A stretch of DNA of 64,000 bases from an uncultured Chitinophagaceae bacterium (GCA_963754585.1 CAVWGT010000002.1:8865-72864), one strand, 5' to 3'. Positions 11,478 through 39,857 are shown, counted from the stretch's first letter. The notes: generated by a model from the sequence alone, not told the origin. Translations and numbers: made by a program.

Positions 11478-11912
11478 TTACTTTGGTTTATGCAAAGAGG
11501 TTGGTAATCTGTGTGTTTGCCGGATAGCCAAAAGCGTCAGGCTCAGAAAAAAAAGATTGAAAAAAAAGTGCACAGGGAAATCCATAGATTTTAAAACGCC
11601 CCCGCAGCTGCAGGGAACCCTTTCAAAAACATTGAGCAGCACAAGTCCCATGTACCCCGTGAAAAAGCTCATCAGAAGCGCTGAGCCGTACAGGCCCCAA
11701 ACCCGGCTGGATGGGACAAACAGCAAAATCACCACCAGCGTTTCTGAAAGCGGAATCAGCCAGAGCAGCCAGGGTACAGACCAGACCGGGATGGCCTGGT
11801 TAGCAAGCTCTCTTTCAAAAACTTTCAGATCAGCCCATTTCACTGCGGCCGTATACACAAAAAGAAGGATGAGTGCGGCCGTAATCAGCCGGGTAGCCAT
11901 GCTGTTTTTCAT
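11478..11912 (-). CDS. MauE/DoxX-family redox-associated membrane protein
   Basis: 144 aa with 4 hydrophobic segments. AVKWADLKVFERELANQ...VPCSCGGVLKSM is typical of the MauE family. Confidence 0.7.
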   Translation of the reverse strand: MKNSMATRLITAALILLFVYTAAVKWADLKVFERELANQAIPVWSVPWLLWLIPLSETLVVILLFVPSSRVWGLYGSALLMSFFTGYMGLVLLNVFERVPCSCGGVLKSMDFPVHFFFNLFFLSLTLLAIRQTHRLPTSLHKPK

Positions 11913-12087: not shown

Positions 12088-12648
12088 TTATGTGGGCATT
12101 CTTCGGATTTCACTCATTCGTCCCGGTGAAATTTCCAGATAGCTTGCGATGTCTTTTAAAAGAAGGCGCTGGGACGGGAAAATTTGCCGGAAATGCTCGT
12201 AGGCCAGGGCGGTAGGAAGCGAGCACAGAAATGATTTGAGCTCGCCATGATTTCGGTCATTGAGTATAATCTTGCTGGAAAGCTTGGGTGCTTCCCTAAA
12301 GGTATGGTACAGATAGATGAGGCTGCTGTCTGAAAGTGTGGTCAGGTAGCTGTCTTCTAAAAGCATGATGCTGTCCGTAGCTATTTTGTGACTGGGACCG
12401 CCGGCCAGAAGCATCACCTGATCCTCTTTCCAGAAGCGGGTGACATGTTCTTTTCCTTCCTGATCCTGATAATAGCCCTTGGCAAGACCACTTTTGATAT
12501 ACCAGATCATAGGTGTCTGGCCCTGGCGGCTAAGGATGTCCCCCTTTTTGTAGCGTTTTTGAATGAGCGCCTGATCAAGGGCAAGCCTGAAATCCTGGCT
12601 AAGCGGATAAAGTGCCGCGAAATGATCGGTGAGTTTTAAATTTTTCAT
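12088..12648 (-). CDS. Crp/Fnr-family transcriptional regulator
   Basis: 186 aa. Cyclic-nucleotide-binding-like N-terminus (KKGDILSRQGQTPMIWYIKSGLAKGYY...) and C-terminal HTH (LKDIASYLEISPGRMSEIRR). Confidence 0.8.
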   Translation of the reverse strand: MKNLKLTDHFAALYPLSQDFRLALDQALIQKRYKKGDILSRQGQTPMIWYIKSGLAKGYYQDQEGKEHVTRFWKEDQVMLLAGGPSHKIATDSIMLLEDSYLTTLSDSSLIYLYHTFREAPKLSSKIILNDRNHGELKSFLCSLPTALAYEHFRQIFPSQRLLLKDIASYLEISPGRMSEIRRMPT

Positions 12649-12668: not shown

Positions 12669-13859
12669 TCAGTATTCTTTAATCCAGTTGATCACCGATT
12701 CAAGCATTTTGATTACGGTTTGTTTGTCTTTCTCTTCAAAAGCATAGGATTTTGAGCGCATGCTTTCCCAGGAAATTTCAGCTTTCCTGGGCGTGGAAAG
12801 AAAGGGTACAATGCTTTCAAAAACCCTGCTCATCGAGCGCGCTTTTAGGATTCTGAGCGAGTCCAGCGCCCTGAGAAGCAGCCCGATCTGATCTACCGAG
12901 AGAAGGACCATGATTTTGAAGGATTCGGATGCAGGCCCAGCAGCCGCGAGATGTTCAAGCGGGATAGGGTCCGGCTGCGGTATATCTTTGAGATAGCCGA
13001 TCTCCTGGGTAAACCAGTTGGATATGAACTTTCTTATATCCGAATGTGCCGGGCTTAGTTTGATACCTGGCTTTCGGTGCATCTGATTAAACTGCTTGTA
13101 ATGCAAAAGAAGGTGGCGTATCTTTTCGTTCGGCTGCGTGATCGTATCGATTTTACCGGCCAGATACCGGGTATAATAGTCCAAAAATGGCCTGCTGTTA
13201 AAATTAAGATAAACCAAAAGTTCGAGCAGGGCATCGTTGATTTTCGGATGCTGCACGGTCAGTAGCGTTTGTTCTATTCCATAGAGTAGTTCTCTTTGAT
13301 AAAACACGGTCCGGAAACTTACCGGCTGCAGCCAACTGCTTGTATCAATGCTTAAAGAATCCAGCAGAATAGCGACCAGATTGGGGTCCGCATTTTTGGA
13401 TGTAAGCTGATGTTTTGCCTGGCTGATGCGGCTATGATGCTGCCGGGTAAATTCTGCAAGGTAGGTATGCGGTGCATGCTCGTCAAGGTCCAAGTAATCC
13501 CTGTGGCTGCTTTGAATAAAGCTCAAAAGCTCATAGACACACCCGGTGAGCTGTGCCAGCGCGTCTGCTGCCAGGGTGTTCAACGGATTGATCCGGGCTG
13601 TTGCCTGTGCTGCCTGGTCAAGCAGCAGCAGCAGGCTTTGATGGTGCTGTTTGATAAGAAGCTGTATTTTTCGTCTGCTGGAAAGTCTCAGACGCTGGCG
13701 GTTGCAAAAGCTGATGTAATTTTGTTTTTTCTCATGTATCTTCCCGGTGATCTTTTCGTACTGCGCTGTCGAGAGCGTACTTACTTCGGATTCACCGGAT
13801 TCAAGGACAATGGTGATAATGAAATCCAGCCATTCCAGTGTATTTTGCTTTTCTATCAT
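12669..13859 (-). CDS. Hypothetical 396-aa helical protein. The last ~80 aa are reminiscent of the RteC-type C-terminal winged helix (weak).
   Basis: Long intact ORF in a gene-dense same-strand block. The C-terminus FKIMVLLSVDQIGLLLRALDSLRILKARSMSRVFESIVPFL... loosely resembles RteC C-termini. No motif I can name firmly. Confidence 0.5.
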   Translation of the reverse strand: MIEKQNTLEWLDFIITIVLESGESEVSTLSTAQYEKITGKIHEKKQNYISFCNRQRLRLSSRRKIQLLIKQHHQSLLLLLDQAAQATARINPLNTLAADALAQLTGCVYELLSFIQSSHRDYLDLDEHAPHTYLAEFTRQHHSRISQAKHQLTSKNADPNLVAILLDSLSIDTSSWLQPVSFRTVFYQRELLYGIEQTLLTVQHPKINDALLELLVYLNFNSRPFLDYYTRYLAGKIDTITQPNEKIRHLLLHYKQFNQMHRKPGIKLSPAHSDIRKFISNWFTQEIGYLKDIPQPDPIPLEHLAAAGPASESFKIMVLLSVDQIGLLLRALDSLRILKARSMSRVFESIVPFLSTPRKAEISWESMRSKSYAFEEKDKQTVIKMLESVINWIKEY

Positions 13860-13974
13860 AAGAACGTCGAGTTAAAAAACTAAAAATTTTCAGTCCTAGA
13901 AGAGAAGGGAACTATCGCGGTTTGGGGTGCCGGTTGGCATTGACAAGCGAGCTGCTGCTGACATAGGTTTTAAT

Positions 13975-14026: not shown

Positions 14027-14170
14027 TTACTTTGGCGTAATGAGCGTGCAGATCATGCCACTTGTGGTGACAGAATCAGAACCGGGCTTTTCTGATTTAT
14101 TCTGCCAAATCCTGCTTTTAAAGTAATTCAGCGTTACTTCTTTGAAAACGAGTTTTTGATGCTTTTTCAT
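14027..14170 (-). CDS. Candidate RiPP (class I lanthipeptide-like) precursor peptide, 47 aa; below the ORF-track size cutoff
   Basis: My own translation: MKKHQKLVFKEVTLNYFKSRIWQNKSEKPGSDSVTTSGMICTLITPK. Lys-rich MKK..KL.F.KE..L leader-like N-terminus. The last 18 residues hold 7 Ser/Thr and 1 Cys. The same promoter motif as lanB lies 68 nt upstream, and a strong hairpin lies 23 nt downstream. Confidence 0.55.
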   Translation of the reverse strand: MKKHQKLVFKEVTLNYFKSRIWQNKSEKPGSDSVTTSGMICTLITPK

Positions 14171-14231
14171 GATCATCTTTTTGGTTTGTGAAAAATAGGA
14201 CAACCCGCAAAAGAAGCATCACCGGATGAGG

Positions 14232-14295: not shown

Positions 14296-15438
14296 CGTGT
14301 TTTCTGCCACTGAAAATAGGGCTGAATGGCAAAGCAGCGCCAGTAAATAATCATCGGGCGAATTTTTTTTCAGCATTGCTACATGAAGTAGTGTTTTAGG
14401 CTTGGAATTAGTCGCCGTGTTGCATGTGCGCCGGAGAATTGGACCGCTTGGGATCAAAGAATCGATAACTTAAGTAATGCCGTAGCCGCTGGGGATAAAC
14501 AAGTTTTAGCGGAATGATCCCGTCACAATCGTTTAACCCAGATGTTTCTCTGAAATAGCATCCTATCCAACAAGGATAAGATGCATCCTTAAAATTTGTG
14601 GATCTTGTTAAAAGCTTTACTGTTTGTTAGCCGCTTTTAGTTGCAAGGCAGCAAAGTACTAATGAATCAAAACAATAAGGATGCTGAAAAGTTACAGAAG
14701 TTTGGCAACTAAGAAGATTGGTCCGGGGCAAAAAGGACTATTGATTCCACCGGAGTGTTGAAAGATACGGTTGGTGTGTAAAGGTAGCATCGTAGATGAT
14801 ACTATCCTGCCTGAGGCTGAAATACAGATCAAGCTTGAATGTGACCATCTTGACAGTCGTTTGACAAAACGTCATCGGGCGAGCCTGTTTCCATCGTCCG
14901 AGTTGCAATTTTTTTTTACCCATGTACAGTACTTAATGGACTGATTATCAGTGCGAAAAAAACGTTTCAGCTTAGCACGTACGAACGGTTTTTTGGACTA
15001 AAAATTTCTGCAACTAAAAGCCTAATAACTTTCCAGTACTATAGGCAACAACTTTTTATTTTTTTGGCGGCTACATGGCCATTAGGGTAAGAACTTATCG
15101 GCTGAATGCTTTTTTATGCTGATGCTAATGGCCAATCCTGTGATTGCTTGATCCAATGATTCAGAATATAGCTTCTCACAGGTAAAAAAATGATGTTTTG
15201 GTTTCTTGTCAAAGATTTTGAAAAGAAATGAAGCATTTAATATTACCACTAATTACAGGTGTGAACCGCTGACCGGGATCAAACCCTAATTAGCATTTTA
15301 AGGTTAACTACTTTTTGCCAATTATTTATATTGATCGGTTCGAATACAGATGAAATGAGCTTTTCTAATGGTGGGGGTTAGAGGATACAGGATTATTTTG
15401 AACGTACAGCGTCTTTAATACTTTGTTTTAAACTGAGA

Positions 15439-16623
15439 CTAAGGAGCTTTCAGGGGAACTGCAGGTGAAATCAGCGGCAAATCAAGCGTAATACTGAAAT
15501 GCTTCTCGTTTTCAGTTGCAGTCAGGCTATATTGGCCCTGAGCACTGATTTCAAGACGCTTTTTGATGTTGTCCAGTCCGATGCCGGAATCTCTCTGGTT
15601 TTTGGGTTTGATAAAAACGGCGGGTTTATTGTTTGCGATTATAAAAAGGAGTCTGCCTGCTTTTACACGCAGCTCGACATCGATCCAGCAGTCTTCAAAC
15701 GTTGAGTAAACCCCGTGTTTAAAAGCATTGTCTGCAAGGGTGAAAAGGACCAGCGTCGGCACAAGATGGTCGGGTGAAATCTTCCCTTTTTGCCGGACAT
15801 TGACTTTCAGACGGTCGTTAAAACGCTTGGCTTCCAGGTCCATGAAATGTAGCAGTGCATGCCATTCGCTTTGAAGCGGAATCAGTTCCTGATCCGTCTT
15901 ATAGAGTATAAAACGAAGCACGTCGCTAAGATTGATTAGATAGCCGGACGCCTTTTTGCTAACTTTCAGAAGGTCCGATAAAACAGAATTAAGTACATTG
16001 AAAACTAAGTGGGGTGCTGACTGCGTGCGCAGGATAACCAGTTCGTTTTTTAGTATGTCGGCTTCAAGCGCCCTTTGCTTGATTACAAGATCCCTTTTCT
16101 GAATCAGCTGCTGAACTCCATACTGGAACATTTTAAGACCCAGCGGAAGAAAAAGGATCTGCGTCTCAGTCACATCGTAAATCAGAAGCATTAGCCAGTC
16201 ATCAGCCTGGTTTTGACCGGGCGGCCTTAGGTACATCGTTCCAAAGTGTAGGAAATTCTCCGAAAGGCTGCCGAGCCCGTATTGCTGATCCAAAACAAAA
16301 TAGACCGATACAGTCGTAGTGTGCATCAATAGTACCATAAAAATACCACTGAGCACCATCAGGCTTCCCCCATAATACTTTTCTTTCAGATGGTTAAAGA
16401 CGCCTGCCGACAGATAATATACCGGAATAAACCTTAGGTAATACAGTGCGTAGGCAATCACCCAGCTGGTTTCATAATGAATTTTTTCCTTTGAGCCTGC
16501 AAAGTATAAAAGATGAAACACCATAAATACCAGCCAGAAAACCGCGTGGTACTTCAAGCGTCGTCTCAGCGTCTTGGGCTGCAGAAGATAGCGAAGCGGG
16601 AAATGATTGACATGTTTATCCAT
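15439..16623 (-). CDS. LytS/YehU-type sensor histidine kinase (membrane N-terminus + His_kinase + GHKL ATPase)
   Basis: About 5 hydrophobic segments in the first 170 aa. H-box region RTQSAPHLVFNVLNSV. ATPase motifs TLADNAFKHG and DSGIGLDNIKKRL. Overlaps the regulator gene by 8 nt. Confidence 0.85.
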   Translation of the reverse strand: MDKHVNHFPLRYLLQPKTLRRRLKYHAVFWLVFMVFHLLYFAGSKEKIHYETSWVIAYALYYLRFIPVYYLSAGVFNHLKEKYYGGSLMVLSGIFMVLLMHTTTVSVYFVLDQQYGLGSLSENFLHFGTMYLRPPGQNQADDWLMLLIYDVTETQILFLPLGLKMFQYGVQQLIQKRDLVIKQRALEADILKNELVILRTQSAPHLVFNVLNSVLSDLLKVSKKASGYLINLSDVLRFILYKTDQELIPLQSEWHALLHFMDLEAKRFNDRLKVNVRQKGKISPDHLVPTLVLFTLADNAFKHGVYSTFEDCWIDVELRVKAGRLLFIIANNKPAVFIKPKNQRDSGIGLDNIKKRLEISAQGQYSLTATENEKHFSITLDLPLISPAVPLKAP

Positions 16624-17454
16624 AAAGCGGCCCTAGTTTTTTTAATACCTCGCTTCTTAAATACCGTGAAACCTTGGCCTTGTGCTTGCTTTTGTTCATG
16701 ACCATTTCATTGCCAACCAACTTTTTTGCCAGCTGACCGTTGATGATATACGACCTGTGGGTTTTGATGAAAATGTGCGGTAGCTTCTCGATAAGTAGCG
16801 CAAGTGATATGCGGACCAGGTACGATCTTTCTTTGGTATATATTTCAACGTAGTTGCCTTGTCCTTTCACCATATAAAGGTGACGGTAGGCCACCGAAAG
16901 AATAATCTTGTCCACCCGGATCCACATGATTTTTTCTTCAAAAGCCGGGACCTGCCTTCGATGGGCAAGCATCTGATCCGGGCCGGGTATTTTTTATAAG
17001 GACTTGAAAAGGATGCTGCGAATCACCCAGAAAGCCTTGGTCAGGGTCTGTAAGATCCTGCTGGCGGATTTTGCCTGCTCTTAGCATCCGCACCTTGTGA
17101 ACAGCTTTCAGAAATCTTTCCATCGAGAAAGGCTTCAAAAGAAAATCAGCCACATTGTGATCAAAGCCATCTATCGCAAACCGGGCGTGGGCCGTAGTCA
17201 TAATCACTGACGCACTGATTTTTCCCGACAATACCAAGAAGCTCTAGACCAGAAATGTAAGGCATATCCACATCAAGAAAAATGATGTCAAAATCCCTGG
17301 CAGAGATCGCTTCCACGGCCCTGACTGCATTCATACAGCCTTCGGAAAATTCCAGGCCCGGAATCTTGCTGATATAAAATTTAATGGTTTGGTGTGCTGC
17401 GCTCTCATCATCCACAATGAGACACCGCAGCGGAGGTATAACCTGCTGTTTCAT
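16616..17454 (-). CDS. LytTR-family response regulator, with 2 frame changes
   Basis: Receiver (CLIVDDESAAH...DIIFLDVDMPYISGLELL; SASVIMTTAHARFAIDGFDHNVADFLLKPF) and LytTR domain (YVEIYTKERSYLVRISL...FIKTHRSYIIN) in three overlapping ORFs. The first shift maps to an A5/T5 run near 17215. Confidence 0.8.
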
Positions 17455-17534
17455 CCGAGTCAGAATTTAAATACAACAATTTTTTCTGCTGGGTTATTTT
17501 TAATTACTACGTAACGAAAGGAAGGAGATAATTG

Positions 17535-17545
17535 AATTTATGTGA
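17535..17545 (-). promoter_or_regulatory. Third copy of the TCACATAAATT core, 81 nt upstream of the LytTR regulator start
   Basis: Minus strand ...CCATTATATCACATAAATTCAATTATC... Shares the 11-mer with 14238-14248 and 20722-20732. Confidence 0.4.
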
Positions 17546-17582
17546 TATAATGGTTACATCCTACAACTTTTAGGAATATTTT

Positions 17583-20500
17583 TCAGCGGTTTTTATTTTT
17601 CGAAGTGAAGGCATAATATTTCTTTAGATAATGATAGACGGCCAGTTCCTGTTGCCGGTGACGGCAGTAAAACCAGCGGTTTAAAAATAGGTGCACCAGA
17701 TCAGCTGCCACTTTGGCTTTCACATGCTCCTCTTGCAGTGCAGGGTGGAAACTTAGTCGTTCGAGCAGGGTGGACCGCTTGCTTAGAATCAAGCTAAGCC
17801 TTTGGATGTCGGCAGATTTTTCAGCGCCCATCAGTTGAATGATCTGCTGTTTTTGCGTCCGGTAGTTTTGATCCATTTGCCTTCGAAGCAGTCCGTTGGC
17901 ATCCAGCTCGGCCGAAAACTGCCGGTGCATCGTCTGAATCAAACCGGTCCTGCCTTTCAGATCAAAGCCAAAATCAGTAAGCAGACGATCCGTGCCAAGC
18001 AGTGCTCCTTGCCAGCGGAACTGTTCGTTAGTTGCCATTTCTTTCAGACAATTTAGCACCGTGCAGCTGTCCAGGTGAAAGACGGATTCGATCTTGGCGT
18101 AGACCTGCTGCGGGAAACGTTCGAGTTCCCTTTGATAGCGGTCGGTTTGAACACGCTGAACCATACCACTTTCCAGCATAGGTTGCAAAAGCGTGTGCAG
18201 CTCCTTGATGATAAGTGACCAGAAATCATTTTTACTGCTGTAAAACCGCATGCGGATATGGGGTTCCGGATCCCGGTAACGGATAAAAAACCATTTGCTG
18301 ATGATTCGGCGTTTTTTTAGCAAAACCAGAAACGGAAACAGCGTGCCGGTCAGCAAAGTATCACAAAGCCTTTCTGTGCAATAGATTTTTATATACAGCC
18401 AGCGGGTCCCTGAGGTGAAATTACGGGTCATTCCACCTTGTTTAGTGTAAGCTGGCACCTGTGCAATAGCTGCGGCGTTGTGAGAATTTTTAAAGGGAAT
18501 CACAACTTCGTTTGCGAAATATTTGGCATCCTGCGAGATTAAGCCCTCTGAGGGCCTTTCCAGAGACTCTGTGATGCGAAGGCTGCCTTCTTTTTTTAGC
18601 ATTTGAGCCAGAAGTGCCAGTGAGTGCTCGTTTTGGCTGTCTATCAGAAGCATCTGATCGCCTTTTCCGGCAGTGAAGAACCTTGGGGTATGAATCCTTT
18701 TTTGAACACCTTGCCACCAACTGCGTTTTCTTTTGTCAGACTCCATTTCCCGCTCTCTATTTAGCAGCCAGCTGGCTTTGCTGATGATGAGCTTGTCATA
18801 CTGCACACGGGGCAGAAATGGGGCGTCTTTGTATTTTCTCCAGTCCCAGACCAGCGAAATTGAGTTCTGGCTGCCCAGATCGCAAAGAAAACGGTAAACG
18901 GGAAGGCCCATGCTAAAATTGTGTGCACTGCTCAGCACAGGCATGATCGGTTTTTTTAGCAAAGGGCTGCTCAGTATCAGGTTTTTTCCATCTGGACAGC
19001 TCAGGAAAAGATCGGCAGGGTCAATTCTTTTTTCGGGTATCTTGGTACTTTTTGTTAAATACGGGATCTCAAAGTCTCGAAGATCAGGTCTTTGGGCGAT
19101 GTTACCGGCCTTCCCGTCTGGCAAATGGGCGATCTCTGCATAAATTACTCTTTCATCCTGCGCCTGTTCGCTTTGGATCATATCTGCAACATGCCGGGTG
19201 AGCACCGGATCCTGCGCACAGAACCTTGTCAGAAGGTTGGCTGCCGAGGGGCCGTAAAGTCCTTTAAGCTCAAAAAGAAAATCGCCTTGATCCAGCGCCT
19301 GCGGTGAGTGGGTATGAACACTGCCAAACACATAGAAGCTGGAAGGCAACTGCGGAATATCCGCATTTTCGTTGGCTTTTAGAAGCGCATCGGTAAGCGC
19401 TACCTGCTGGCTTCCCATGGGAGAGGCGGTCTGATAGAGCCCTTCGGCAAGATCATTTAGATGACCGTCCCTGGCCTTTTCGTCAGATTCACTCAGGTCA
19501 ATACCTTTCAGCAGCGGCAGAGTACGCTGCGTGTTGGTGCTTAGTGTGCCGTATCCTATGCCATAATCGTAATCAAGCGCGCACAGCAGCGGAATGGACT
19601 GCTGGCCATAACGGGCGGCAAAACGGCGGGTAAAATCTTGCAGATCCTGACTGTCCGTCTGACTGGAGAGCATGCCGATACGGCTAAGCATAGCCCCGAG
19701 CTTGGAAAGGAACTTATGGCTGAATGTAGCAGTATTCGCCTGGAAACCAAGTGTTGTATGAATGGTATTTTCCAAAGGATGATCCGTTTTAATCAGGTGA
19801 TTAAGCATTTTGTTGATCTGAGCCACCGGGGCGTTTTTATCAAGCTTTTTTTGGATTCGTCCTATCCTGCCTACCACCGCCTTTGTTCTCTTAAGTGTTT
19901 TGAGCGCTACTGAAAGGAGTGTAAGATAGTCCTGTCCGGTAATGTTGAGCTCGATACTGCTGACAAGAATCTGCGCTTTGATCAGCTCATTTACATATGC
20001 CTTAGCGCTTGCAGCACTTAATTTTTCATGCCTTAAAAGCGAAGTGAGTTGCAAAGGAGTGAGCCCTTTTTTCGCGCGGTCCAGTAACTTTCCAAGTGCC
20101 GGGTGAAATTCAGCCTGACTCAGTAGGGATATCGTTTGGTAAGAATCTGGCAGCCTTCTGATGTATCGGTAACTTTCCCCGACCCTGTACAGCGAGGAGC
20201 TTGGGTAAAAAAGAAGCTGGGATCGTAGATGGTCTTTTCCAAGAATATATTTCTGAATGGCGTGCTGCGCGCTGGTGTCCAGACGGCATCGTATGGCCAA
20301 AGGGTTTTGCACGCTGAAGTCAATTTGGGTGCGCGCCGCTGTTTCAAAAGTAAGGTAGCCTGCAAAAAGACCAAAAGGCGTGCATCTGCCGCAAGCGCGG
20401 ATTAAATATTTGTAAAGGCTTATAAGAAGCTTTTCTTTTCCTTTTACCGGTTTTTGGTCCACAAGAGCCCGGGTCATCTCATAAAGCGTGCCTGAGGCGA

Positions 20501-20660
20501 GCTGGATGCCTTCTAACAAAACAGGATCAGAAAAGATTTTTTGCAGCTCTGGTTCAAATCTTGAAGGATCCTTGCTGGTAAGATTGTGAAAGGATATCAG
20601 AACGTTTCTAGGCAAAAGAGGGCGCCGAAGCACACCAAAGCCGTAAGGTTGCAGTTTCAT
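17583..20660 (-). CDS. lanB: Full-length class I lanthipeptide dehydratase (LanB-type: N-terminal glutamylation domain + C-terminal elimination / SpaB_C domain)
   Basis: Intact 1025-aa ORF. N-terminal YKYLIRACGRCTPFGLFAGY is typical of Lant_dehydr_N. C-terminal RWLYIKIYC...KWFFIRYRDPEPHIRMRFY is typical of the thiopeptide-type bacteriocin biosynthesis (Lant_dehydr_C) domain. Confidence 0.85.
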   Translation of the reverse strand: MKLQPYGFGVLRRPLLPRNVLISFHNLTSKDPSRFEPELQKIFSDPVLLEGIQLASGTLYEMTRALVDQKPVKGKEKLLISLYKYLIRACGRCTPFGLFAGYLTFETAARTQIDFSVQNPLAIRCRLDTSAQHAIQKYILGKDHLRSQLLFYPSSSLYRVGESYRYIRRLPDSYQTISLLSQAEFHPALGKLLDRAKKGLTPLQLTSLLRHEKLSAASAKAYVNELIKAQILVSSIELNITGQDYLTLLSVALKTLKRTKAVVGRIGRIQKKLDKNAPVAQINKMLNHLIKTDHPLENTIHTTLGFQANTATFSHKFLSKLGAMLSRIGMLSSQTDSQDLQDFTRRFAARYGQQSIPLLCALDYDYGIGYGTLSTNTQRTLPLLKGIDLSESDEKARDGHLNDLAEGLYQTASPMGSQQVALTDALLKANENADIPQLPSSFYVFGSVHTHSPQALDQGDFLFELKGLYGPSAANLLTRFCAQDPVLTRHVADMIQSEQAQDERVIYAEIAHLPDGKAGNIAQRPDLRDFEIPYLTKSTKIPEKRIDPADLFLSCPDGKNLILSSPLLKKPIMPVLSSAHNFSMGLPVYRFLCDLGSQNSISLVWDWRKYKDAPFLPRVQYDKLIISKASWLLNREREMESDKRKRSWWQGVQKRIHTPRFFTAGKGDQMLLIDSQNEHSLALLAQMLKKEGSLRITESLERPSEGLISQDAKYFANEVVIPFKNSHNAAAIAQVPAYTKQGGMTRNFTSGTRWLYIKIYCTERLCDTLLTGTLFPFLVLLKKRRIISKWFFIRYRDPEPHIRMRFYSSKNDFWSLIIKELHTLLQPMLESGMVQRVQTDRYQRELERFPQQVYAKIESVFHLDSCTVLNCLKEMATNEQFRWQGALLGTDRLLTDFGFDLKGRTGLIQTMHRQFSAELDANGLLRRQMDQNYRTQKQQIIQLMGAEKSADIQRLSLILSKRSTLLERLSFHPALQEEHVKAKVAADLVHLFLNRWFYCRHRQQELAVYHYLKKYYAFTSKNKNR

Positions 20661-20715
20661 AAAGACGCTTTTTTAAGTATATCATTGGCTGTAAAGTTGG
20701 TCAGGCGACTCTTTT

Positions 20716-20800
20716 TGTAAAAATTTATGTGACAGCAGGTTGCTAAGGAGATTTGAGTAGCTAAAAGCAGCATGCAAAGCGCTTTCGGATGACTTTGAAA
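20716..20800 (-). promoter_or_regulatory. lanB upstream region: the conserved 24-mer plus TTCAAA-type boxes in 21-bp register
   Basis: Minus strand CCTGCTGTCACATAAATTTTTACA (20739-20716) differs at 1 of 24 nt from the copy at 14255-14232. ACTCAAATC (20758-20750) has identical spacing to the box at 14274-14266. TTTCAAAGT (20800-20792) lies exactly 42 nt further upstream. Confidence 0.5.
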
Positions 20801-21499: not shown

Positions 21500-22241
21500 C
21501 AAAGATTTTTGCGGTGATTGATCTATATGCATCAGCAGTAAGACTGTGTAAGGATTATCGTTGTTATCATTTAAGCTGCATTGCAGATCTGAAGCTTGCC
21601 CAGCTGAGGTGATCACCACCAGATCATAACGGTCCTTTTCTGTTTGCTCAACCGGAAAGTTTCCCAACGGGTGATAATGGGAGGGCCTGATTGTTTTCAA
21701 GTTTTTTCATGATTTCCTTTCTCAGATTTTTCTCATGATTAGGTTGACCTTCCAGTGTTATTCTATATTTGCGACTTGCTTGGATGCTGTCAGATAAGTC
21801 AGTTATCCTTCTCAGGCAGATGCTTAGTGTAGAAATCGCTTTCCGCTTTTCTTCCGGTTCTTCATTAGTGAGCACCTCAACTGGTTGATTCAGCTGTTGC
21901 ACTGCTACACCGGCCATGATTTCTCTTCTTCCAACGGCGCTGGAAATAATGAGGAGGCATGAAGATAATCCTTTGTGCGATAACCCAGGTGTTGTGCGTC
22001 CGGTTCTAAGCAACCAAGAGATGAACGCCTACCAGAACAGATCGCAGATCTTTGCGGGATTTTGAAGACACTTACTTTTCATATTGCCCGGCACACGTTT
22101 GCTGCAACCGTGATACTGAGTAACAAAGTGCCGGTTGAAACAGTTTCTAAGATGCTCGCGCATCGATCTTTGATGCAGACGATGATTTATGCCAAAATTT
22201 TGGACGTGAAGATTAGAGAAGATATGAAGGTTTTGAAGTAA
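21500..22241 (+). pseudogene. Decayed tyrosine recombinase (Bacteroidetes integrase family): many stops, frame changes and an internal deletion
   Basis: My own translation. 22026-22241: EQIADLCGILKTLTFHIARHTFAATVILSNKVPVETVSKMLAHRSLMQTMIYAKILDVKIREDMKVLK* (HxxRH box and catalytic Y). Another frame just upstream gives ISLLPTALEIMRRHEDN...VLSNQEMNAYQ, and 21880-21925 gives LIQLLHCYTGHDF. No + ORF of 60 aa or more exists here. The 5' limit is approximate. Confidence 0.7.
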
Positions 22242-22274
22242 AAGTTGAAAGGGGATAATGCAACTCCCAAAAGA

Positions 22275-22313
22275 CGAAACAAAAATTGCGACATTGTCGC
22301 AATTTTTGTTTCG
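22275..22313. terminator. 39-nt perfect palindrome after the integrase remnant
   Basis: CGAAACAAAAATTGCGACA-T-TGTCGCAATTTTTGTTTCG. Confidence 0.55.
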
Positions 22314-22659
22314 TGCAAAAGCTTAGAATGATATTCTAATATGTAATGTAACCGAGAATTTGCTTGCCGTCATCAACCAGATAATCCAAGATGCTCAAAA
22401 TACTCATTCTGCGAATTGAATAATAGTCATCTTACTGAGCACAGATGCTGGAATTACAAATTTATCCTCCGCAGCATTTTTAATGATCGGTTGCATAATC
22501 AAAGTTGAATTGCCAATGGCTTAATAATGGCGGGTTTGATTATAATTGTTACTGATTTATAGAAAACGACTGAGTGAAAATTAAATCACTTACTGACCAT
22601 TGACTATTGGGGCTGATCCACAAATCCTGCCTTTAGTCGACGACTTTGGTTAATTCGGG

Positions 22660-36184: not shown

Positions 36185-38186
36185 ATTTTTTAGCTCTGCC
36201 GCCTTTTTTATTGACCAGAAGATGCGAAAGCGAGGGATCATTTAAAATCTGGCTCATTTTGTGATCGTAAATGTTTTGAATATCCTCTTTTATATTACGG
36301 TAGTTTTGAAGAATGATCGAGGAGTCTACCTGCCGCACCTTTGGGAAGCGGTCTGTATTGATCCGATTCATTTTTCAAAGCCTTATGATCATTCTGGATC
36401 TGACTGTGAAAGGCTTTAAGATCAATTTTTTCAAGCGGATCATCGGCTACAATACCGACAAATTCACCAGAGCTCAGCGTTGAGATCTTTGAGGCCGGAA
36501 TGGCCAGTTCGAGCTGCTTGGATTTGCTCACCGAAGTATCCGACCGGTTAATTGATAGGCTCGATCGGTCCTGCATGATCTTACCAAAGCGCTCTGAGAG
36601 CTGTTTGGCCGTATCACCCGATACCTGCCCGCTGATAATGTTTCCGGCAATGTTCATAATCACATCGGCCTGTTCTCTTCCGTAATCCTTTTTGAGCTGA
36701 GAGAAATCCTGCACGGCAAGTGTGGTGGCCACCTGGCTGGAGCGCGCCGTAGCCATCAAAGTGTCAATGTTGCTTAGATAAATGGTGGGGAACTCGTCAA
36801 AGACCAGACTGCTTTTTAGTTTACCTTTCTGGTTGACAATTTTAATCAGCCGGTTTACATACAGGGAAAGTACTAGCGCCGTAGGTCATGATCTTCTGCG
36901 GATTATTGCCCATGCAAATGATTTTAGGCTCTTTGGGGTTATTCACATCGAGTTTGAAGTCATTTCCGGACAGCACATAATACAGATTCGGTGATGAAAG
37001 CCTGGCCAGCGCGATTTTCGCAGAGCCGATCTGGCCTTCAAGCTGCTCCATGGCATCGTTCAGATATGCTGTCATAAAAGGGTTAATTAGAACATCGATC
37101 TCTTTCTCTGTCATCAGAATCGAGAACAGACTATCATAATCCAGCTGCATCAGCTCCAAAACATGCGGAAGCGTACAGAAGGCGCCGTCCTGGAATTTTC
37201 TTAAAAACCAGATCACAGCCGTCATAAAGTTGATTGGTGATTCAACAAAAAAATCGCCCTGTTTTTTAATCCATTCCCGGTTCAGGCCCATCAGGATCGT
37301 GCGCGCTGATTCTGCCGCATCGGTAATATCGAGCATCGCTTCGGGGTCCAGCGGGTTACAGCGGTGCGAATAGCTTAAATCATCAAAGTCAATGTAATAA
37401 AATGCGGGCGCTACCTGGTAGCTGTCTTTATTTTTGAGCCAGTGGTTGTAGGCAATCCGCGTCAGATCAGGGTATTTAAAATCATAGATGAACATGGTGA
37501 AATTCTTGGCTAATGTGCTGGGTGATCACGTGGCGTATGACAAAATATGATTTTCCAGCGCCTGGTGAGCCAAGTACCAATAGACCACGGAACGGATTAA
37601 TCACATTGATCCATCCTTGGTAGAATTTTCTTTTGAGCTGAAAGCGGGTGGGCAGATTAATGGAAAATTCATTTTCCAGCAGTTTCTGCTGCTGGGGGAA
37701 AGTCTCGTTTTCGCTATTGAAAATATCACTGCTGAGCTGATCGGATATGACCCTTGAAATCAGCGTTCCGCCGCTTAAGATCAAAATGTAGCCTAGCACA
37801 GTAAGGCTGATATAGGCTATTGTCAGGTAGCTGACAGAAAGTTTCCAATCCAGTAGCAGAACACTTACCCAGTATAAGCACATTCCTGCACCAGCCAGAA
37901 TCAAGCCGTTTTTTACACTTAAATTTTCTCTTTTTTTACCCCTAATTCCAAGAAGCGATATCAAAAGAAAAGCCAGCGAGAAGATCTTTGCTCTATTAAA
38001 GCCATCAAAAAGATGTGTTTTGACAATATTGTCAAGAATCCGGTTGGTAAAAGGGCTGCTCAGTCCCAGCAGTTGAAAGGCTGCGTAGAACTGGTAGTAA
38101 AAGTGAAGAGCCAGAAGAAGAATGCTGATCAGCCTTGTCATATCGAGTATTCTTCCAAGGGCCTGCTGGTTTTCAGAGCTGTCCAT
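36183..38186 (-). CDS. Type IV coupling protein (TraG/TraD/VirD4 family; MobC in Bacteroides nomenclature), with at least 3 frame changes
   Basis: N-terminal TM segments, Walker A LVLGSPGAGKSYF, then YDFKYPDLTRIAY..., then ...FDEFPTIY.../ATARSSQVATTLAVQDFSQLKKDYG in four ORF pieces (37482-38186, 36842-37495, 36295-36759, 36183-36371). Confidence 0.8.
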
Positions 38187-38197
38187 AGGTATTTGGT

Positions 38198-39472
38198 TTA
38201 ACGGGAAGTTTTTCTTTTTCTTTTTTTATAGGGTTTTCTTAGGGCCAAAGGGGCCTGATCAAATCCCCAGGCCGGCATGAACAGATCATGCAGTAAGGCG
38301 TCAGTTTTGTGACGCTGGGGAACAGAAGGGTCAAGGGCCTCTGGCCACTGGACATACGCGCTGGCAGCTGCGGCAGAATCTGTGGCCGGGCTCAGCGGCA
38401 TGTTTGGAACCGGGGCCCTGGCTGCTAACTTACCGCAGCGCTTGTAAAGGCCTTTTAATTGGTATTTCTCCCCGAGCTTATCTGCATCAAAGGCGCAAAG
38501 GGTCCGGTTGTCAATGTAGACAAGCTTAGATTCTGTCTGGTTTCTTTGCCTTGTTACATGGATTTTAATGCCTTTGCTTTCAAGTACACCGGCCAGCTCA
38601 TTCAAAGAGCTTACCTGCTGATCTAAAAGCGCCAGATCAAGCGTGTTGCTCAGCCGGCTAAGCTGCTTGGTCTGCTCTTGTCTGTGCCGATCAAAATGCC
38701 GGTAGAGCGCTTTAAGTGTGGCCTGCCCTTCAAGACTGCTGGCTTTAACCGCTTTGCAGGTAGCGCGGCCCCGGCTGTCAACCGTGCGGTAGACCAGGCC
38801 CCCCACTTTGAAAAGGTACGAATTCTGGCGGCCTTTGGATGCCTGCACGCCAAACTGTCTGAGCAGCGCATTGTACTCAGAAAAAGTACTGAATCGGTAG
38901 TCTTTCAGCACCTTTGCTAACGCTGTTTTCATAACATATAGCCGGCTTTTATTTTCTTTTAAAAAAGTGTTTTCCACGCCCTTAAGCTGACTTATTTTGC
39001 TAGGGGTGTTGGGATTTTTCAGCCCGAACTGGCTTTCAATGGCTCTTTGGGCCTTATGAAGCAGTGCCACCGTCATAAATTTGTCATGGATCCGGCTTCC
39101 ATCTGCCCGGATCAGTGTTGATACCACATGGATATGCTTGTGAAGCGTATCGTGATGCTCGTACAGCAGGTAGGGCTGCCTATCAAAGCCAAATTCTTTT
39201 AGAAAGACAGCGGCGATCCTTTTTAAATCACGGGCAGAAAGCTGATCAGAACGGTCAAAATGCATCGAGAATGTCATCACATTCACCTTGCAGCGCTCGT
39301 TTAAAAGCATCCGCTCAGAAAGCCGTGCCAATTTTTGTTCGATGGTCAAAAGCTCCGGGTCTTGCAGATAAAAACCTGCATCCAGAAAGGTGGCGGTTTT
39401 ATCCTGCACCTTCTTTTCATGGTAGAGCACCGTCCTTTCCAAAAATCTTGTTTTATTGATGATCCCAGTCAT
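38198..39472 (-). CDS. Relaxase/mobilization nuclease (MobB-like)
   Basis: Probable start MTGIINKTRFLERTVLYHEKKV. His-triad region YEHHDTLHKHIHVVSTLIRADGSRI. Overlaps the upstream mobA-like gene by 20 nt. Confidence 0.8.
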   Translation of the reverse strand: MTGIINKTRFLERTVLYHEKKVQDKTATFLDAGFYLQDPELLTIEQKLARLSERMLLNERCKVNVMTFSMHFDRSDQLSARDLKRIAAVFLKEFGFDRQPYLLYEHHDTLHKHIHVVSTLIRADGSRIHDKFMTVALLHKAQRAIESQFGLKNPNTPSKISQLKGVENTFLKENKSRLYVMKTALAKVLKDYRFSTFSEYNALLRQFGVQASKGRQNSYLFKVGGLVYRTVDSRGRATCKAVKASSLEGQATLKALYRHFDRHRQEQTKQLSRLSNTLDLALLDQQVSSLNELAGVLESKGIKIHVTRQRNQTESKLVYIDNRTLCAFDADKLGEKYQLKGLYKRCGKLAARAPVPNMPLSPATDSAAAASAYVQWPEALDPSVPQRHKTDALLHDLFMPAWGFDQAPLALRKPYKKRKRKTSR

Positions 39473-39857
39473 TTCCAGAAATGTTATGCAGATAGCCGCT
39501 AATGGTTTCAATCTGTTTGACAACGCGCCGGCGGTCAATCTCAAAGCTGATCATCCATTGCGCACTGCTAATGGAACCTGCCACCGCACTAAGCTTTTGT
39601 AAGGCGGTCTCAAAGTGATGGCTGACCGTTTTTAGTTCTTCTTTGAGCGCTGCAAGCTCCTCGGTCAGATCATCCAGCGAGGCGTTTCGGTACTTGTATG
39701 TCAGGGCAGCTGCAAGAATTTTGTTTCTGATAAATTCGCTCAGGTTCCTGGCTGTGGTCTGCTGCATTTCCGCCCTCAGGCGCTGCCATTCGCTTTCGCT
39801 CACCCAAAAATTGATCGGATACTTGTTATATTGGTTTGGTTTCATTCGCCTTTGCAA
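39453..39857 (-). CDS. Small relaxosome accessory protein (MobA/MobC-type, ribbon-helix-helix-like)
   Basis: YPINFWVSESEWQRLRAEMQQTTARNLSEFIRNKIL, and its position directly 5' of the relaxase. Confidence 0.6.
   Translation of the reverse strand: MQRRMKPNQYNKYPINFWVSESEWQRLRAEMQQTTARNLSEFIRNKILAAALTYKYRNASLDDLTEELAALKEELKTVSHHFETALQKLSAVAGSISSAQWMISFEIDRRRVVKQIETISGYLHNISGNDWDHQ

Follow-up and report, generated by a model that had tools for sequence, protein, structure and literature searches.

The 24-nt element upstream of the lanthipeptide dehydratase gene lanB (CCTGCTGTCACATAAATTTTTACA, minus strand, 20739-20716) and its near-copy upstream of a precursor peptide gene (CCTGCGGTCACATAAATTTTTACA, minus strand, 14255-14232) appear, with a probability of about 0.6, to be the promoter-proximal cores of two co-regulated, activator-dependent promoters, PlanB and Ppep, in a LytTR-regulated peptide module. 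Judged by comparison with orthologous loci, the two copies are homologous parts of one promoter layout and represent a real shared promoter/operator region. The 24-mer itself is best described as a composite, in which the last and weakest position of a putative operator is followed by an A-tract and a putative -33 element. All coordinates refer to the window, i.e., the whole 64-kb stretch of DNA analyzed.

The lanB Module and Its Host Element

The gene assignments of the initial annotation (lanB, LytTR regulator, peptide) are borne out by the domains encoded. On the minus strand, lanB (17583-20660) specifies an intact, full-length lanthipeptide dehydratase of 1025 aa with Lant_dehydr_N and Lant_dehydr_C domains. 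The response-regulator gene (16616-17454, minus strand; receiver plus LytTR) carries two +1 frameshifts, near 17225 and 16985; its orthologues are intact and encode 274-280 aa. A membrane histidine kinase gene of the LytS/YehU type (PF06580; 15439-16623, minus strand) is intact. The precursor peptide gene (MKKHQKLVFKEVTLNYFKSRIWQNKSEKPGSDSVTTSGMICTLITPK, 14027-14170, minus strand) is a small Ser/Thr/Cys-rich ORF of 47 aa with an alternative in-frame start at 14176; the peptide includes the sequence ...VTTSGMICTLITPK, and the family has a conserved TTSG(M/T)IC core. Three downstream genes on the same strand are kept in the module and encode a 396-aa all-alpha protein that belongs to no family (12669-13859), a 186-aa cNMP-binding/Crp-like protein (12088-12648) and a MauE-family membrane protein (11478-11912).

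The module thus has the order lanB, LytTR regulator, kinase, variable cargo, peptide, 396-aa protein, Crp-like protein and MauE. In the window, the interval between the kinase and peptide genes is ~1 kb long and gene-free; in related loci, the cargo at this position varies. In every related locus, the regulator gene separates the lanB promoter from the peptide promoter, and the Crp-like and 396-aa genes occur in every complete close-clade copy of the module. No LanC, LanT or LanP was found in the window's cluster. Homologues of the LanB protein are mostly from Dyadobacter (nearest 50-61% identity), and by the names of homologues the source of the window would be a Dyadobacter-like member of the Cytophagales. 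A metagenome scan with the regulator protein returned only one further close locus (L088). In related loci, the same module adjoins conjugative-transfer genes (coupling protein, relaxase, MobC, DUF932, SSB), and its carrier is an integrative conjugative element found in Dyadobacter-type Bacteroidota. In the window, this element seems to have decayed: besides the two frameshifts in the regulator gene, the gene for the coupling protein is broken up over three or more reading frames, and an integrase survives only as a fragment. The frameshifted genes are probably real pseudogenes and not assembly noise, because the 3-kb lanB and a neighboring 3.5-kb gene are intact.

The Repeated Element in the Window

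The lanB and peptide 24-mers differ at a single position (1/24), as previously noted, and they are the only matches in the window when up to three mismatches are allowed; 100 dinucleotide-preserving shuffles gave 0.00. Similarity between the two upstream regions stretches to 46 nt, at 76% identity. An exhaustive word search for the 11-mer TCACATAAATT returned exactly three copies, all on the minus strand, at 14248-14238, 17545-17535 and 20732-20722, so that the recurrence reported upstream of the regulator gene at 17545-17535 stands. The expectation of ~0.03 chance matches per 11-mer is arithmetically right (128,000/4^11), and the distances of 62, 68, and 81 nt to the lanB, peptide and regulator starts hold if the count runs from the final base of the 11-mer to the first base of the ATG (20660 for lanB, 14170 for the MKK start of the peptide and 17454 for the regulator).

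Shorter words are far less informative. The decamer variant ACAWAAATWT alone gave three matches in the window vs. 1.6 expected, which is not significant by itself, and the significance of the motif comes from the comparison of orthologues. The generic word TAnnTTTG is not enriched in the window (46 observed, 53 expected), a scan of the whole window at Rfam gathering thresholds found no RNA family, and a scan for sigma-70-type promoters, a type irrelevant to this phylum, gave fewer matches than shuffled sequence.

A Promoter Layout Conserved Across Related Loci

Upstream regions of three genes (lanB, peptide and regulator) were aligned for nine non-redundant close-clade loci, and the full comparison set comprised 23 promoters from 14 related contigs (Dyadobacter, Rhabdobacter), including the distant relatives L092, L093, L094, L013, and L046, with a LanB identity of 32-44%. 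Anchoring on ACAWAAATTT allowed a gap-free alignment of lanB with peptide promoters. Both share a layout that consists of phased TTCAAAyCA 9-mers, the decamer ACAWAAATTT, an unconserved 20-nt spacer and a second box, which in turn lies 30-40 nt before the ATG. The decamer is invariant in 16 close-clade promoters and recurs with small variants in the 23 promoters of the 14 contigs. The ten lanB promoters of the close clade have it unchanged, 69-75 nt ahead of the start codon, and the peptide promoters of this clade keep a longer element, G(G/A)TCACAWAAATTT, whose distance to the ATG is 76-77 nt (78-79 nt in distant clades). A tTTCAaAnC box is located 27 nt upstream of the decamer throughout the close clade, with a second box 21 nt further up and, in lanB promoters only, a third another 21 nt up. 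The register of 9-mers, T-run, 20-nt spacer and second box is free of indels down to 32% LanB identity.

A composite matrix covering -50 to +12 and trained on 13 sites recovered the held-out promoters of L008 at positions +70 (lanB, 58 bits) and +77 (peptide, 29 bits), as well as the lanB promoter of L091 (53 bits) and the peptide promoter of L088 (55 bits). The best unrelated score was 11 bits among 3.5 million positions, and no composite site was found outside lanB and peptide promoters in ~1.76 Mb of related loci (the same 3.5 million positions, both strands). With the simpler expression ACA[AT]AAAT[AT]T, 15 of the 19 matches in 458 kb are lanB or peptide promoters. Since the loci are phylogenetically related, all of these counts overstate the independence of the sites. 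The matrix is specific to lanB and peptide promoters; with two composite sites in the 64-kb window and no extra ones in the related loci scanned, the element can be taken neither for a generic promoter word nor for a repeat dispersed across these sequences. Of the shared promoter or operator that had been proposed for three starts, the lanB and peptide parts hold, as these copies are homologous, co-conserved and at fixed distances from the ATG, whereas the copy upstream of the regulator does not belong (see below). Consensus folding of eight peptide leaders yielded no predicted pairs, and the conserved peptide leader is thus not an RNA structure.

The Core Promoter

The lanB 24-mer can be divided into a 9-mer, R3 (GCTGTCACA, 20736-20728), the A-tract TAAA and the T-run TTTT (20723-20720), the last being the putative -33 element. 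The peptide 24-mer has the same parts on the same, minus, strand: R3 (GCGGTCACA, 14252-14244), an A-tract and a T-run (14239-14236, putative -33). Promoters of Bacteroidota have the -33/-7 elements TTTG and TANNTTTG, with the -7 box at -12 to -5 (PMC6847099, PMC9723704), and leaders in F. johnsoniae average 33 nt (PMC6847099). In 23 of 23 promoters, a second conserved box is found exactly 20 nt downstream of the T-run. At lanB, this putative -7 box (CAACTTTA, 20692-20699, minus strand) predicts a start near 20687 and a leader of ~27 nt, relative to which the 24-mer spans approximately -52 to -29; its orthologues read AAACTTTA, CAAATTTG in L094 and GATATTTG in L013. At the peptide gene, the corresponding box (TTCTTTTG, 14208-14215, minus strand) predicts a start near 14203 and a leader of ~33 nt. 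The peptide boxes follow TTnnTTTG in nine of nine promoters, with free middle bases (CT, GA, GT, GC), and the lanB boxes follow nAnnTTT(A/G).

The T-run is probably a -33 element located at -36 to -33, with the downstream box as -7 and leaders of ~27-33 nt. This assignment draws on the fixed spacing and on L013, L014, L059, and L094, in which the pair of T-run and second box takes the canonical form TTTG-N20-nAnnTTTG. At the T-run position, TTTG is found in the peptide promoter of L005, in the lanB promoters of L094 and L013 and also in L014 and L059, against TTTT in the window. Upstream of 1008 ORFs of related loci, TAnnTTTG mostly starts 25-45 nt before the ATG.

In the initial annotation, TAAATTTT within the 24-mer had been taken for the -7 box, with leaders of ~55-70 nt; neither is probably correct. 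The same reading was taken first here and was demoted because of the fixed 20-nt spacing to the second box in distant clades, so that a -33 role for the T-run is now preferred over a -7 role at odds of roughly three to one. Under the -7 assignment, which is considered unlikely, transcription would start near 20715 and 14231 with leaders of 55-61 nt, R2 and R1 would occupy -43 to -35 and -64 to -56 in a class-II-type arrangement, and the downstream box would be a leader or operator element. Such leaders are about twice the phylum average, though TAnnTTTG does occur 65-69 nt before an ATG in related loci. The close-clade word (T/A)AAATTTn fits four to five of the six near-invariant positions of TAHHTTTG (key-position matches are 5/6 for TAAATTTT, 4/6 for CAACTTTA and 5/6 for TTCTTTTG) and obeys the rule of no G at -10/-9 (PMC6847099), but all close-clade promoters except one lack the G at -5, which belongs to the essential TTTG (PMC4747536). 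L014, L059 and the L012 group are also difficult to accommodate: their upstream box keeps TTTG without TA, with nAnnTTTG 20 nt downstream. The paired repeats of L046 (see below) would come to lie at -45 to -34 and -24 to -13, inside the polymerase footprint, a position typical of repressors, and nothing would explain why a transcribed element is kept at 20 nt without any indel. A similar box at -7 distance, GAAAATTTTCAG, located 26-38 nt before the 396-aa gene, speaks for the -7 assignment, as it could only be a -7 box there.

Two observations count against the -33 assignment of the T-run. Close-clade (T/A)AAATTTn fits TAHHTTTG better than do the downstream boxes, which deviate by a T at -11 in peptide promoters and by an A at -12 and -5 in lanB promoters. 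Moreover, a -33 element alone leaves the invariance of ACA and of the AAA-tract unexplained; ACA(T/A)AAA in front of the T-run lies outside the known Bacteroidota consensus.

The Phased 9-mers and Their Putative Regulator

Upstream of the 24-mers, putative regulator sites are arranged on the minus strand in a gap-free register. The lanB promoter contains R0 (TTCAAAGTC, 20799-20791), R1 (TTTGCATGC, 20778-20770) and R2 (CTCAAATCT, 20757-20749), of which R1 is a poor box; the peptide promoter contains R1 (TTCAAATCA, 14294-14286) and R2 (TTCAAACCA, 14273-14265), 21 nt apart, which form the sole exact TTCAAAYC-N13-TTCAAAYC in the window. From R0 through R1 and R2 to R3, the start-to-start spacing is exactly 21 nt in all close-clade promoters. 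R3 is occupied by the 5′ half of the 24-mer (CCTGCKGTCACA) and is the repeat nearest to the putative -33 element; although it keeps the phase of R1 and R2, its sequence is only weakly similar to theirs (nTGGTCACA vs. TTCAAACCA). The repeats of LytTR operators abut the -35-equivalent element or directly precede it. With the T-run as -33, the present array would conform to this, R3 being located at -49 to -41 and R2 at -70 to -62, while with TAAATTTT as -7, R3 would fall inside the spacer.

Three further features that characterize LytTR operators are found here: at least two imperfect direct repeats of ~9 bp, a linker of 12-13 nt (21-22-nt period) and a LytTR gene in the locus. A ComE site, for example, consists of a pair of direct 9-bp repeats separated by a 12-nt linker (PMC4005675). 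In the peptide promoter of L046 (Rhabdobacter), GCGTTCGTCTCA occurs twice, 21 nt apart, exactly at the R2 and R3 registers; this repeat has GTCnCA in common with R3 and resembles the AlgR consensus CCGTTCGTC (PMC4064291). Intermediate boxes occur in the lanB promoters of L003 and L007 (TTCGTACC, TTCGTCCC) and in both promoters of the L028/L058 clade. Thus, the box sequence varies by clade (TTCAAAyC, TTCGTACC, TTCGTC) and the LytTR gene between the promoters is constant. Upstream of lanB, the best 10-mer match at a spacing of 20-22 nt is 7.56 where a LytTR gene follows vs. 6.51 where none does (Mann-Whitney p = 6e-6, with related loci counted as independent), and control spacings showed the opposite trend. 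The phased 9-mers are likely binding sites of the regulator encoded between the two promoters, and the likeliest LytTR operator would be the upstream 9-mer array, only the last 9-mer of which lies within the 24-mer.

Two downstream genes of the module offer a different candidate. The 24-mer (TGTCACA or GGTCACA plus A/T tract) could be the operator of the Crp-like or the 396-aa protein, acting with or instead of the LytTR regulator. ACAWAAATTT is conserved more strongly than the 9-mers and beyond the needs of a -33 element, TCACA corresponds to a CRP-type half-site, and both genes accompany every complete close-clade module. Nevertheless, this is quite improbable. The element has no dyad symmetry: TGTCACA lacks a symmetric partner and only ACA is conserved, lanB promoters reading AAACA, CAACA or CCACA. 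Palindromes that would suit dimeric regulators lie elsewhere, namely TACAG-N6-CTGTA at lanB and CTGAAAATTTTCAG before the 396-aa gene. The proteins themselves offer little: the Crp-like protein gave only a weak cNMP-binding match with no HTH detected, and a Foldseek comparison of the predicted structure of the 396-aa protein with the PDB returned no match (best E = 1.1) and no recognizable DNA-binding fold. A CRP/FNR-type dyad of 16-22 bp (e.g., TGTGA-N6-TCACA) was also considered and rejected, TGTCACA being neither partnered nor conserved.

Very improbable is an alternative sigma factor that reads both promoters with ACAWAAATTT as its recognition element. The box is indeed invariant and atypical (ACA plus A-tract, no terminal G), and both candidate -7 boxes deviate from TAHHTTTG, yet the module of no locus contains a sigma-factor gene, distant clades have the canonical TTTG-N20-nAnnTTTG in the same register, and ECF-type AAC/CGT motifs are not conserved. 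An ECF-type AAC-N17-GTC reading of the peptide promoter was discarded, as the GTC is not conserved in lanB promoters.

The Copy Upstream of the Regulator Gene

The third copy of the 11-mer (17545-17535, minus strand) is located in the intergenic region between lanB and the regulator gene, where it overlaps a conserved A/T box, TTAAATTYA. Regulator-upstream orthologues read CTATTTAAATTTA in the close clade and TTAAATTCA or TTACATTCA in distant clades, so that the copy shares only TAAATT with them and its TCACA is specific to the window. Neither phased 9-mers nor a conserved box 20 nt downstream were found at this copy, and the region has conserved boxes of its own (TATTCCTnnAAGTTGTAGGATGTAACC, TTAAATTYA, GTATTTAAATTCTGAC). 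By this comparison, it belongs to a different promoter region, in which TA-nn-TT(T/C)A, with its variable middle bases, would most simply be a -7 box. The third match is in part an overlap of promoter consensus and in part chance.

Near-Identity of the Two 24-mers

The 23/24 identity is peculiar to the genome in the window. When peptide and lanB promoters of the same genome are compared over the homologous 24 positions, five other genomes give 12-16/24, and cross-genome pairs give 10-16/24; outside this genome, conservation extends to only ~10-13 of the 24 positions. The lanB 24-mer of the window matches the peptide promoters of other genomes at 16-19/24 vs. 13-18/24 for other lanB promoters, and its closest lanB relative, L091, reads CCCGCTGAAACAAAAATTTCAGCT. 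The restriction of 23/24 to this genome marks the identity as a lineage-specific homogenization over 10-13 constrained positions, apparently by short transfer or convergent selection. That the match is nothing more than the trace of a recent gene conversion or duplication between the two upstream regions, devoid of regulatory meaning of its own, would agree with this uniqueness and with the peptide-like lanB copy of the window, but it is the least credible of the explanations and, as a full account, largely refuted by cross-genome conservation: 10-13 core positions, the flanking 9-mers and the spacings are kept at both promoters in every related genome, homogenization accounts for only the extra ~10 identities, and the flanks show no homology of the length that ordinary recombination needs.

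A Model for Co-Regulation

According to the proposed mechanism, the phosphorylated LytTR regulator would bind the phased 9-mers as tandem protomers. The last position, R3, abuts the T-run, so that the regulator could recruit the housekeeping RNA polymerase to weak -33 (TTTn)/-7 pairs with starts near 20687 and 14203, and the precursor peptide and LanB would be switched on together. No terminator-like site was found between lanB and the regulator-kinase genes; activation of PlanB would thus also raise the levels of regulator and kinase, beyond those supplied by the regulator's own basal promoter, giving rise to positive feedback. The frameshifts in the regulator gene have probably put the circuit in the window out of action. 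With the regulator a pseudogene, the promoters in this genome may be silent or used differently.

A more far-reaching and rather doubtful proposal is a self-contained, quorum-sensing-like circuit on a conjugative element. Here, the PF06580 kinase would sense the TTSGMIC peptide, dehydrated by LanB, as its signal. Bound to three to four phased 9-mers, the LytTR regulator would activate Ppep and PlanB, and through the latter its own genes, and ACAWAAATTT would serve as a dedicated promoter element needed for this activation and not only as a -33 box. If true, neither a LytTR peptide autoinduction loop nor a defined LytTR operator would have a precedent in the phylum.

A full-text literature search turned up no description of the module, and none of a LytTR operator from Bacteroidota. 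Pairs of LytTR regulators and PF06580 kinases are very common in these bacteria, and none had a defined operator or target promoter in the literature searched. The comparative data give a model of the binding site (TTCAAAyCA, 21-nt phase), two candidate target promoters and cultured Dyadobacter strains with an intact module, among them D. psychrotolerans AR-3-6, D. koreensis DSM 19938, D. luteus RS19 and D. diqingensis. They also define the predicted regulatory wiring of an unstudied and widespread family of LanB-only peptides (core TTSG(M/T)IC) on conjugative elements. For the motif itself, the outcome is mostly a clarification: it would belong to an ordinary kind of activator-dependent promoter, undescribed in this group.

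Comparison with Known Systems

Among LytTR regulons that control pheromones or bacteriocins, those of ComE (com-box), AgrA (P2/P3), PlnC/D and BlpR were compared (PMC4005675, PMC4227749). Like these, the present promoters have a weak core immediately preceded by imperfect 9-bp direct repeats at a period of 21 nt (12-nt linkers), a cis-array before both the peptide gene and the regulator-kinase operon, and a LytTR regulator and membrane kinase encoded in cis. In contrast to these Firmicutes systems, the module is found in Bacteroidota and its promoters follow a -33/-7 instead of a -35/-10 grammar. The kinase is of the PF06580 (LytS/YehU) type and not HPK10/AgrC, up to four phased boxes occur instead of two, TTCAAAyCA is new, with all sites putative, and the product is a LanB-dependent peptide on a conjugative element.

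AlgR of P. aeruginosa is also a LytTR regulator (PMC4064291), and the 3′ part of its consensus is matched by the TTCGTC/TTCGTAC core of L046, L028, L058 and the L003 and L007 lanB promoters. Sites of AlgR are often single, far upstream and independent of orientation, whereas here a phased array is held at a fixed distance from the core; furthermore, the boxes in the window read TTCAAAyC and not TTCGTC. Compared with housekeeping promoters of Bacteroidota, the T-run at -36 to -33, the octamer ending in TTT(G/A) at -12 to -5 and the 20 nt between them are the same, whereas the elements in the window are suboptimal (TTTT; CAACTTTA, TTCTTTTG), as is expected for activator-dependent promoters.

In the lantibiotic clusters, nisA/nisF (NisRK) and spaS/spaB (SpaRK) are autoregulated, and NisR and SpaR are OmpR-type regulators that bind TCT-N8-TCT. 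The present module resembles them in placing the precursor gene and the biosynthetic operon under what is putatively one operator, controlled by a two-component system encoded in the cluster. It differs in its LytTR-type regulator and in a cluster that dispenses with LanC, LanT and LanP.

Precursor peptide and its leader

The precursor peptide genes adjoin full-length LanB, and the peptide family, represented in the window (14027-14170, minus strand) and in the related loci L013, L028, L046, L061 and L094, retains a C-terminal core, (I/V)TTSG(M/T)IC. No genes for LanC, a transporter or a protease were found within the module of this family. The peptide leader carries the stretch TTTGC(G/C)GG(G/A)TT (window 14208-14190, minus strand), which is conserved from the close clade of Dyadobacter-type loci through the more distant L013 and L094. 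This stretch starts inside the putative -7 box and extends past it; consensus folding detected no RNA structure in the conserved leader.

Additional upstream elements

A palindrome, TACAG-N6-CTGTA, lies 32-35 nt ahead of the lanB ATG and spans the predicted transcription start in six of the nine close loci (L002 9968-9983 and equivalents). The window copy (20678-20693, minus strand) is without the 3′ arm (TACAGCCAATGATATA). This palindrome may be a repressor operator. The lanB-regulator intergenic region (17455-17582, minus strand) contains its own strongly conserved boxes, TATTCCTnnAAGTTGTAGGATGTAACC and GTATTTAAATTCTGAC, the latter immediately 5′ of the regulator ATG, and these bear no relation to the array of 21-nt-phased 9-mers of the lanB and peptide promoters. 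A further element, the near-palindrome CTGAAAATTTTCAG (13880-13893, minus strand), sits within a block of strong conservation, CCCTTCTCTTCTAGA...AACTCGACGTTCTCATG, and is conserved in seven loci, 26-38 nt ahead of the ATG of the gene for a 396-aa protein. This near-palindrome probably serves the downstream genes as a promoter or operator separate from the others. The 396-aa gene itself (12669-13859, minus strand) always comes next after the peptide gene, and its product, for which neither Pfam nor NCBIfam gives a match, is a member of a family found widely across Bacteroidota. The AlphaFold model (pLDDT 82) predicts an all-alpha fold, for which a search of PDB folds gave no match (best Foldseek E = 1.1).

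Variable cargo and probable gene decay

A hot spot for cargo lies between the kinase and the peptide gene. In L002 (15260-19764) it is occupied by ArsR-type, arsenic-resistance-like genes, and in L005 (15286-18293) by genes of AraC, SDR and lectin-like type. In the window it consists of about 1 kb without ORFs (14457-15439), within which a repeat of about 22 nt (TCATCGGGCGA...) occurs in three copies. The window LytTR response-regulator gene (16616-17454, minus strand) carries two +1 insertions that disrupt it, one near 17225 and the other near 16985; the rest of the protein shares 60-90% identity with the intact D. psychrotolerans orthologue, and the gene is probably a recent pseudogene.

The conjugative element of the window looks decayed and rearranged relative to its orthologues. 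Genes for MobC, the relaxase and the coupling protein are located at 36207-39803 (minus strand), the last of these broken into at least three frames, and upstream of lanB a tyrosine recombinase is reduced to its C-terminal part (22062-22241, plus strand). Adjoining this integrase remnant is an inverted repeat (22274-22314) whose 20-nt arms, ACGAAACAAAAATTGCGACA / TGTCGCAATTTTTGTTTCGT, match perfectly and have 1 nt between them; the repeat could be either a terminator or a recombination site.
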